Assembly: GCA_031835245.2 (NCBI GenBank)
Contig: JAVKOQ020000022.1
Span: 1-64,000, forward strand
Length of the DNA: 64,000 nucleotides
DNA from: Balamuthia mandrillaris
Taxonomy: Eukaryota
Reading direction: 5' to 3'
Part shown: positions 6,001 to 9,000 of the stretch, in pieces
Position numbering within the stretch: position 1 is the first letter of the stretch
Layout of the letters: each line of letters begins with the position of its first letter
Made by a program: the position numbers and the translations under genes
Notes under the pieces: generated by a model
The model's input: only the letters and a program-made list of their open reading frames with translations
Database searches by the model: none
What the model was told of the DNA's origin: nothing

Positions 6001-9000
6001 CATGGCCTCTGAAGTAAGGGCATACTGCACCCAACAAGAGACCCACGTTGAGATGGACTACGGCCCATCCTGGCGTACCATTGAAGACCTAATAGCTGCT
6101 GCTCTCAATTTTCCGCTTTTAGACGAAAACAATACATCACAGACAATATACACAGAACACCTTCCACCAAGCACCGTACAAGATGAACGTGGCTCCGAAA
6201 CAAGCACGAACTTGACAAGTAAAGTCCTGGAACGCGTTATACAAATCATACATGATGCCACCCTTGCTGTTCCTGAGCTTGTGGACCGGGTCTGGTATCT
6301 CTATCAGGAGCTGCTCTCTCCCCACATCGACCTTCTGCCATTGTGGCAGCAACAATCCCTTGCAGACTGGTTTCATGATCTACCATGGTCCAATGCCACT
6401 TTTCACCAAAGAGACCTTTCTACGCTCAAGCACATGCACCGGCATGCCCTTCTCTCTGCCCACCATGTTGTCTGTGTTATCTTTCGAAGACTCTCTTGGA
6501 GTCACCTACTCAATTTCGCTGAGGAAGCACAGACTGGATTCAACAGTGCAGTGCTGCTAGTGGATACTGAAGGCACAGTTACCAAAGAGCAACAACTACC
6601 AAGCATATCTCAGTCTTCTCTGGAGGCCCAGCACCTTGGTGCACTCTATTATCTTCGTTTGTACTTACTTCTCAATTTGCTTCAACCGGACGTCAAACAG
6701 AGCTCATTATTGGAAGATAGCGAGCAGTCGGATAGCAAGCTTGCTGACAGTTTGCTGGGCATTGATTGGCCTTCTATTCCTGGACCATTCTTCGAACGAA
6801 TCTTTGATGGCACAGCCCTGCTTGATCCTATGAGGACTAAAGGTGCTCTTCTTATCTCTCCATGCTAAGGCGAACTAACATATCACACTGCAACACCTTT
6901 TTGAATAAAGGTTGCCTACGGAGAATAGATCACGATCCCTCCGAACAAATAATGGAAAATGCCCTCATGCTACGCGGTACTGATTATATTCTTACTTTAC
7001 AATATTATTGTGCTAAAATATTTTAAACACTAGATATCGTGCTGCAGATGAAGTCTCCAATTGCTGCTGCTGCGTGCCTCAGGGAGATCCGATCTTTGTT
7101 ATTCTTCTGTATTCAGAACAAAGATGATTCAAGTAAGTGGAAATGAGTTTTCTTGCTAAGTATGCTAACAATTTCTTTTACATTTTGACAAAACAAAGAG
7201 CAAACTTGGCATCTATCTTATCCTGAACACATTGCACTGTTGACTTCGGTGTTAATTCCTCTGTCACGTCGCTTTGCGGAGGAATCTTCCCGTGTAGCCA
7301 GCCAAATGATTTTGTTCACGCTATCTTGCATAGAAGCTGAATGGCAAGGCCCTGTTCTACCTCAACTTGCTTTCTATAATTCCAACGATGGTGTTCCAGT
7401 GCGTCCTTCCACAGGTTGGCTCGCTGCGCTACCCTTATTGGTTTTGTGTTGCTGTGTTTGCATTCTCGCCATTTCTCATCCAGTCTTTTCTATCTTTCAT
7501 CTTTGCTTTATTTATTGGTTTAATGTTTCTAAAAGCGGAAATAGGCGAGGAAGGGGATGTAATCATGAGCATTGGTGCTGGATTGGAGAGTGGAGAGAGT
7601 GAGAAAGGAGAAAGTAGGGCCAAAATGTTTTACCAAACTCTTACTGGCATCGTAATGCAATTCTGTGCATCGGCATCCCCATCTGTAGCCATCGAGATCT
7701 TGAATGTTGCCTCATCAGGTAACAACATTTTTTATTCCTGTGAAATGCAAGAAAAATTACTCATCGCCATTGCTCTCATGTGCCGAATGTTAGTGGTGAC
7801 GAGCATGCCTACACTTTGTCGGGTCTACGAAGAAGCTTTGCACGCTTATTTTGGATCACATGCCAGTCATACCCCAAGCCTGCTACGTACGTTCTGTGCT
7901 TCATGATTTGCTGGAATCTAGTCGTCAAGTACTTGGTAGACCTTTTTATTCACTAAACTCGTGCATTCTCACTTACAGATGCCACTGCAAGCATGCAACC
8001 ACCAAGCATACCTTGGGAAAAGTTTCTTGGTGTACGGATCAATCAGGAATCCTATAAAATTGCAACTAATCTCATAATTCATTTTACACAGGCATGCTCT
8101 CAGACCCCTTGCAGTCTTACGCTTCGTGTAGTTCTAGAACAAAAGCATCGCTTGCTCTCTAGAAGTAGTGAAGACGAGCAGTGGCTCAAGTTTGTGTCAA
8201 TAGCAGTGCGTGCCGTTGTCGGATTCAAGCCAGACCCCAACAAGGAATTTGAAGTTTTCGTGCTATGGTTTTTCATTATCGAACTGGCTCTTGACCGCAA
8301 ATGGCGAATCACACGCGCCACCAATCAAGTGGTAATTTTATTATTTCTGTACCTCTCGCTCATAAGCTCGTCTAATCCCCATATTGCTACGTAGGCCGAA
8401 GTCTTCTTAAAGTATCTTCAAGGGTGGTATGGAGCTGCTGGTAGCAGTTCATCTCGTCTGATGGCGTTGGTTATGTCTGTTTCCTCTACCTCCCGTCCGA
8501 AGATATATACCCCCAAACAACCCACCAAACCCAATATGCACCTTGCCGGCCGGGCGTGTTCCATTTTCTTCCGCAGAGTTCTGTGCGAAAAAGACCAACC
8601 CAACACATCCTCATCAGCTAAGGTACCTCTGCGTTGGAACCGCCTCCTTGTGCATTGAAACATGAATGGAGCTAACAACAATTTATTTTGGGTGTAAAAC
8701 AGCAGTCCGCACAAAACGTGCTGGCTCATGGCTCTGGCGAAACGCTCGCCAAGGAACTGGACGAGTTATTGCTTACGCAGGAGGACTTTCCTGAATACTC
8801 TTCCTTTTATGAGCAAGTTGACAGGTAAGTGGCATGTCGTTTTTCTGTTTTATTTCCGGATGGGAAAGTGGATGGGCGCTTCTGTTGCCCTCTAGCCCAC
8901 CCCATCCCCGCATTCTCGCAAGAACTTTCATTTGTGTTTACTCACTTGTGTGACTTTTAATCCATCAGCATATTATCTCCACTAACAACGTTCCAAGCCT

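Follow-up and report, generated by a model that had tools for sequence, protein, structure and literature searches.

IStrons are bacterial transposons that are inserted as DNA and removed from RNA exactly at their ends, and the IStron of C. botulinum belongs to Group B, the IS607 family (10.1101/2023.11.20.567912; reviewed in PMC13565253). The element from Balamuthia mandrillaris analysed here resembles them in its relation to an IS607-type TnpA(S) and a TnpB, in its apparent removal from RNA precisely at the ends and in a 3' junction that is splice acceptor, transposon end and, by prediction, border between omegaRNA scaffold and guide. IStrons, on the other hand, carry a group I ribozyme, whereas the Balamuthia element has GT-AG ends of the spliceosomal type, an AG/CAG instead of a GG core and resides in a eukaryotic nucleus. 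No Rfam family of any kind matches in the window, i.e. the 64,000 nucleotides of contig JAVKOQ020000022.1 studied here, and the copies of 64-144 nt are too short to hold such a ribozyme. Since it is without ribozyme, the element is not an IStron; the family is best read as introners of the IS607 (serine-recombinase) type whose core is AG/CAG, a spliceosomal counterpart of the IStrons.

IS607 elements move through a circular intermediate with crossover at a core dinucleotide (10.1101/2023.11.20.567912; PMC10711439). Eukaryotic and viral members equipped with Fanzor2 comprise IS607EU, ISvMimi/ApmFz2 and ACa-1/-2 from Acanthamoeba (PMC3627910; PMC3673617; PMC10711439; PMC11832414; further background on known systems in PMC10530073). 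The Balamuthia element has in common with them the HTH-serine recombinase, a TnpB with rearranged RuvC glutamate, the lack of terminal inverted repeats and the ATC-N-G right end. Their core and TAM are described as GG and GGG and the available portions of these papers do not report intron creation, whereas empty sites, miniature copies and ends resembling splice sites are found in Balamuthia. According to the available text of PMC3673617, transposition of IS607 in eukaryotes could not be concluded. Introners, mostly non-autonomous transposable elements that are spliced from exons via encoded or co-opted signals, are intron-sized and present or absent depending on the strain, much like the element described here. 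The classes covered by the accessible part of a large survey (TIR DNA transposons, LTR, non-LTR, Helitron and tyrosine-recombinase or Crypton elements; PMC12130899) include neither a serine-recombinase/IS607 class nor an RNA-guided nuclease, unlike the Balamuthia element. Acanthamoeba castellanii is listed there with 0 introner families, the terms Balamuthia, IS607, Fanzor and resolvase have 0 matches in its 14 supplementary files, and Balamuthia is absent from its accessible text as well. In 10.1101/2025.02.25.640156 a mean intron length of 113 nt is given and transposable elements are stated, in the portion available, to be not yet annotated in depth.

Our analysis indicates that a 144-nt intron in a host gene of the window (Table 1) is very probably an allele-specific miniature IS607/Fanzor2 copy, likely inserted after an exonic CAG and likely removed by the spliceosome by virtue of its GTAAGT and CAG ends. 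Enclosed by GT and AG in the window and a multiple of three in length, it interrupts the frame in phase 2. As the initial annotation had proposed, its removal joins the exons in frame, and the spliced frame is open across four RNA-supported junctions down to the stop at 9081-9083; when the intron is retained, a stop is met just inside, at residue 214 as opposed to residue 251 of the tested stretch. CAG|GTAAGT is an ideal match to U1, and the probability of GTAAGT directly following the fixed CAG by chance is 2.7e-4. Predicted branch points are CTCAC (A at 8944, position -25) and TTAAT (A at 8960, position -9); the branch candidates of the neighbouring introns, which measure 60, 63 and 80 nt, conform to CTAAY at -20 to -28. 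The C-terminus of the host protein had been called EPG5-like, an assignment that we could not confirm: no Pfam family, no PDB match and, among proteins of up to 2000 aa, no homologue was found. Of two further searches, one gave weak HEAT/ARM look-alikes and the other none.

Table 1. Coordinates of the features discussed in the text (window positions)
Feature	Position	Strand	Evidence
Upstream host exon	8703..8824	+	RNA joints 8620->8701 and 8821->8966
Putative GACAG target, last bases of the upstream host exon	8820-8824	+	
CAG core and putative target, exonic part of the donor; repeated at the right end of the element	8822..8824	+	the 3 letters can be assigned to either side in all runs that show the joint
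Whole element, probable non-autonomous IS607/Fanzor2 miniature and 144-nt phase-2 intron	8825..8968	+	absent as DNA in X1, X2, X4, X8; joined in RNA-type X5 and X9 and in raw RNA X17
Left end of the element, with GTAAGT at its start as 5' splice site	8825..8857	+	depth step; 8825-8851/8854/8857 linked to different internal sequence in contigs; P0153 reads through it in the same frame
Right end of the element and predicted partial omegaRNA scaffold, ends CATCAG, 3' splice site	8859..8968	+	92.9% to 49148-49037; fixed boundary
Last coding exon of the host gene (putative large helical-repeat-type protein)	8969..9083	+	open frame to stop; covered by RNA contigs
Start of the last exon, would-be guide of an unspliced transcript (predicted from geometry)	8969..8988	+	matches empty alleles; first listed difference 9013
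Right end of a second copy, 5'-truncated and without left end, downstream of a coatomer-gamma-like gene	49037..49148	-	
tnpB/Fanzor2 remnant: zinc finger and RuvC-III	49150..49341	-	PF07282 (E 1.6e-7)

Within the window, 8859-8968 aligns with 49148-49037 of the minus strand in 104 of 112 columns (92.9%, E 5e-43), with 6 mismatches and one 2-nt gap. The match ends at the CAG at 8968/49037 and the following bases differ, so that both the similarity of about 93% and the homology stop in front of unlike downstream flanks, from which the initial annotation had started, are borne out. The second copy is intergenic and consists of a 112-nt non-coding tail after the stop of a TnpB remnant, which as a query of 64 aa is 100% identical over 95% of its length to P0001, an NCBI protein of B. 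mandrillaris annotated as 'Transposase'. At an identity of at least 98%, 4 members from 5 contigs make up the cluster of P0001; two divergent models exist besides. P0001 scores 128.3 bits with NF033518 (cut-off 110) and 144.3 with NF040570 (cut-off 100), and its TnpA is a serine recombinase (PF00239) with an N-terminal MerR-type HTH and the catalytic motif present. In this autonomous partner tnpB lies downstream of tnpA, and the non-coding tail of copy 2 corresponds to the right end. Catalysis is of the Fanzor2 type, which is defined by a relocated RuvC glutamate (PMC13565253): the RuvC-II glutamate now lies six residues ahead of the zinc finger and the D-E-D triad is intact. D463, E606, C613 and D647 are invariant in 20 aligned proteins, and P552 occupies the canonical place of the glutamate. 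The nearest solved TnpB-type structure is that of the mimivirus Fanzor2 ApmFz2 (9b0l, E 3.9e-25), the next TnpB-type chain following at 5e-8. The 144-nt intron has no inverted match with itself, as would be expected from the absence of terminal inverted repeats in the IS607 type; the core shared by ends and target is AG/CAG and differs from the GG of IS607. The element is thus a member of the IS607/Fanzor2 group with a non-GG core.

Both ends of the element occur in many copies. In the four DNA-type runs, contigs leave the window sequence directly behind 8968 with unlike flanks (at least 12 in X1, at least 12 in X4, at least 10 in X8 and at least 13 in X2; agreement of the flanks 0.39-0.45), which is the fixed CAG boundary that had been expected of further copies. 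The left 33 nt (8825-8857) are multi-copy as well: depth rises abruptly in the 8820 bin (from 16.6 to 223.7 in X8). At least 5 X8 contigs with unlike upstream flanks ending in (G)ACAG were found, 3 of them matching back to 8820 and 2 to 8821, and the sequence suggests (G)ACAG as the insertion target. In contigs from X2, X5, X8 and X9 the two ends of the element enclose different internal sequences, and the resulting miniature copies of 79, 83 and 64 nt match host introns in size (60-80 nt). Those of 79 and 83 nt are encountered in unspliced form in X5 and X9, both of the RNA type; either not every copy is removed or these copies lie outside sense exons. The summed contig depth of the right end is 51-140x that of single-copy sequence, a figure that stands for 'many' and not for a copy number. 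Patterns for the exact element ends had 0 matches in viral_contigs and metagenome_contigs. In one X5 record (record 21, window 8946-8988) the flank of the 79-nt miniature matches the downstream exon for 20 nt more (6 differences in 43 nt), which may be due to chance, reflect a paralogue or mean that the target preference extends further.

Eight of the 19 listed sequencing runs were compared (X1, X2, X4, X5, X8, X9, X17 and X18; X3, X6, X7, X10-X16 and X19 were left out). X1, X2, X4 and X8, which represent 3 samples and 3 studies, were assigned to the DNA type because neighbouring introns are kept; X9 is labelled 'DNA?' and was treated as RNA because three other introns are spliced out. None of the listed runs holding the window stretch is recorded as RNA. 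In all four DNA-type runs exactly the 144 nt of 8825-8968 are missing and the neighbouring introns are present, as exemplified by a single X8 contig of 6503 nt that contains intron 8623-8702 and lacks 8825-8968. The empty site that had been sought in related strains is therefore found in three studies. CAG fits on either side of the empty-site joint, an overlap of 3 letters. The empty contigs carry the full depth of the flanks (39.6, 9.91, 16.6 and 144 in the four DNA-type runs), and in the contigs of these runs no filled allele was seen; it is known from the window and from one X17 read pair deduced indirectly. Every empty DNA allele has T9013 and A9027, where the window has C and G. Of the original proposal that the element sits in a host intron, the coincidence of its right end with the acceptor stands, but an older host donor does not, since the donor belongs to the left end of the element itself. 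At the empty site there is no intron of any kind, and hence the element would have created one. A repeated element with multi-copy ends that is absent from four of four orthologous DNA alleles is what is known from introners, and the Balamuthia element is probably one of them.

Transcripts show the expected junction 8824/8969. An X5 contig of 739 nt (contig 17) skips both intron 8623-8702 and the 144 nt (joint 8821->8966) and does not differ from the window at a single position of the exons that it covers; X5 contains only the joined form, at full depth and with no second haplotype across 8701-9130. From the raw RNA runs X17 and X18, 3-5% of each was read. X17 provided 2 joined reads with the letters of the window, probably mates of one fragment, and one unspliced pair (8920-9113), also with window letters, that was deduced by depth arithmetic; among the 3-5% read of X18 no reads fall on the junction. 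We infer that the haplotype of the window occurs both filled and joined in one sample (X17). The joined transcript of X9 has the letters of the empty alleles and was left out as splicing evidence. Precise excision by TnpA would leave the same joined sequence as splicing, and X5 and X17 are seen as RNA only; the joined RNA on the window haplotype in both runs, together with the deduced unspliced pair, may reflect the splicing from a filled allele that is expected of introners. As a further observation, RNA reads from tails of the autonomous type outnumber host-exon reads in X17 and X18, and 21 X18 reads run back into tnpB. Some tail reads (region 8859-8968) of both runs continue into flanks, strand and ends being indistinguishable in these data.

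A second host gene harbouring the element is known from a predicted protein. P0153 (KAL6067239.1), an NCBI Balamuthia model, is a chimera of RICTOR, TnpA and TnpB: host sequence extends to Gln191 and is followed by the left end, read in the same frame as the window from 8822 onward, by TnpA and TnpB and again by host sequence from Tyr895. The host halves meet human RICTOR at 815/816, Gln191 and Tyr895 taking the places of 816 and 817. When the element is removed end to end, the predicted protein has 0 residues gained or lost compared with human RICTOR, and the insertion is in phase 0. The first 42 residues of P0153 are identical to one frame of the element tail, and removal of 59 nt in phase 2, up to the terminal AG, would lead into RICTOR, which, on the basis of this gene model, suggests a second sense copy upstream. 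That the RICTOR gene of Balamuthia bears the annotation 'Transposase' is due to the full-length copy that it contains and probably to a second one. A search for further chimeric models via the left-end frame found none; the host genes documented with the element number two. In both of these exonic cases it lies on the sense strand and is frame-exact. Among P0001, P0003, P0153, P0154 and P0002, tnpA and tnpB are joined differently at the same spot (alignment columns 930-970), suggesting that in these models two overlapping frames may have been fused by predicted introns. P0003 (KAL6041057.1), whose accession is next to that of P0154, combines a host-like protein of about 720 aa of unknown nature with a divergent TnpA-TnpB (about 69%) in one model; it may represent a further insertion into an exon or a second subfamily.

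With P0001 as single query no viral relative was found. An alignment query retrieved distant relatives with 25-45% identity from 158 loci, and among these similarity to the element ends was not detected. Right-end pairs in the relatives number 20 in 8 groups, 6 of which end in ATC-N-G or ATCG; ATCAG right ends occur in L114/L115/L119 and L045. Because such ends are widespread in relatives, the acceptor appears to be close to the family norm and would thus constitute a pre-adaptation. AGGTRAG upstream of tnpA was encountered 4 times in 3 of the 64 loci whose upstream sequence was long enough, compared with 2.1 expected, and by this sequence count a donor-like left end is not general among the relatives. 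With L114, L115, L119 and L045, AG-type cores extend beyond Balamuthia; in none of the pairs seen does the left end start with GT.

Judging from IS607 biology, TnpA from autonomous copies would move the miniatures in trans via a circle, and recombination would take place at AG or CAG where other members use GG as core. Sense insertion after an exonic CAG would then yield the donor CAG|GTAAGT together with a YAG acceptor, and splicing would restore the original exon in any phase, rendering the insertion nearly silent. In full-length copies only, the right end would in addition be the boundary between scaffold and guide of a Fanzor2 omegaRNA, as predicted from the geometry, and a full-length transcript would, like that of a bacterial IStron, either be spliced or serve as a guide directed at the empty allele. 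Acceptor 8968 is the fixed right boundary and falls on this predicted border; splicing and guide formation would hence be mutually exclusive, and a conflict between the two is plausible for full-length copies.

The notion that splicing cuts guide from scaffold holds as far as the geometry of the right end is concerned. A working guide RNA from the 144-nt copy itself is doubtful, because only the last 110 nt of the tail are kept, whereas in ApmFz2 the last bases form a pseudoknot with sequence located 161-205 nt upstream (PMC11832414), because of a loss in the terminal hairpin and because the fold resembles that of shuffled sequence. The hairpin has a 2-nt deletion where other copies keep these positions with A or G, and against shuffles the 144-nt copy has a z of -0.97 and copy 2 one of -2.49. 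In the shorter miniatures (64-83 nt) the scaffold is missing altogether. For copy 2, a 7-bp helix between the beginning of the tail and the 3' end was considered and discarded, because folding gives that arm another partner. We only tentatively entertain the further idea that, after TnpA insertion at an exonic CAG and erasure by the spliceosome, Fanzor2 with an unspliced, exon-derived guide cuts the intron-less allele and the intron homes through the amoeba population. If that were true, splicing efficiency would set the rate of intron spread, i.e. intron gain would be RNA-guided. A candidate homing signature in X5 (two haplotypes upstream, one from 8701 on) was uninformative, as runs with the empty site show the same pattern.

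Other explanations have to be weighed against that of a spliceosomally removed insertion. The family might be an ordinary eukaryotic IS607 family whose ends are splice-compatible by accident, the window copy and perhaps that in RICTOR being rare survivors and not products of a systematic intron maker. The right ends of six of eight groups of relatives place the acceptor one substitution from the norm, copy 2 is intergenic and miniatures remain unspliced in RNA-type runs, all of which would fit. An ideal donor, however, is common to the left ends of miniatures and full-length copy and hardly arises by chance, AGGTRAG is not enriched in the relatives, both exonic cases are sense and frame-exact and the miniatures have the lengths of host introns, so that we judge this explanation unlikely. 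Very unlikely, in our view, is that the joined RNA stems from alleles that underwent precise DNA excision or were never filled, the filled allele being a null tolerated thanks to other gene copies. The identity of the sequences left by excision and splicing, the empty-allele letters of the joined X9 transcript, the origin of the DNA runs from samples other than X5 and X17 and the two haplotypes upstream in the runs speak for it; the exclusively joined, full-depth form on the window haplotype in X5, the unspliced and joined X17 fragments with the same letters and the canonical donor, branch candidate and acceptor at normal spacing contradict it.

That a scaffold landed in an older host intron and merely gave it a new acceptor was suggested by the fact that no more than 8859-8968 is found a second time in the window. 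The recurrence of 8825-8857 in other copies and the lack of any intron in the empty alleles of three studies refute this version, which we consider highly implausible. An assembly artefact is scarcely credible: the filled allele appears in none of the DNA-type runs, but the window copy has exact ends at CAG and a private 2-nt deletion, its private haplotype is shared with the RNA runs X5 and X17 and the deduced unspliced pair spans the right boundary.

Insertion of a miniature IS607/Fanzor2 copy followed by splicing thus accounts best for the locus, and an IS607/Fanzor2 transposon acting as intron maker is likely a new way of creating introns. We found no report of an IS607/Fanzor spliceosomal intron in the literature, Repbase IS607EU entries, subscription papers and bioRxiv supplements lying outside the scope of the search. 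With respect to intron gain, a serine-recombinase class would be added to the introners. Its enzyme is defined, autonomous copies are intact and empty sites are polymorphic, so that reconstitution of the insertion is feasible, as it is for few introners. In the field of OMEGA systems, the element would be an independent, spliceosomal solution to the problem faced by IStrons, in which one RNA end is transposon end, splice site and guide border. Furthermore, it would provide evidence for transposition of IS607 in a eukaryotic nucleus, a question left open by PMC3673617, and predicts a Fanzor2 with a CAG-type instead of a GGG TAM. The filing of RICTOR as a transposase is also a warning that gene models of Balamuthia break where the element has inserted.

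Some minor observations concern the surroundings of the two copies. In X1, X2, X4 and X8 a T>C exchange at window position 9081 converts the host stop from TAG to CAG; the next codon is TGA and the protein is extended by 1 residue. On the left of copy 2, 49347-49365 is a 19-nt inverted copy (18/19) of the right flank 49020-49038. When joined at the CAG, the flanks of this copy form a near-perfect palindrome (36 of 39 positions), which could reflect fold-back repair or insertion into a hairpin. The window also contains sequences of a Gypsy/chromovirus-type LTR retrotransposon (RT, RNase H, integrase and chromodomain) at 20308-31587, a region with direct and inverted repeats of 233-241 nt.
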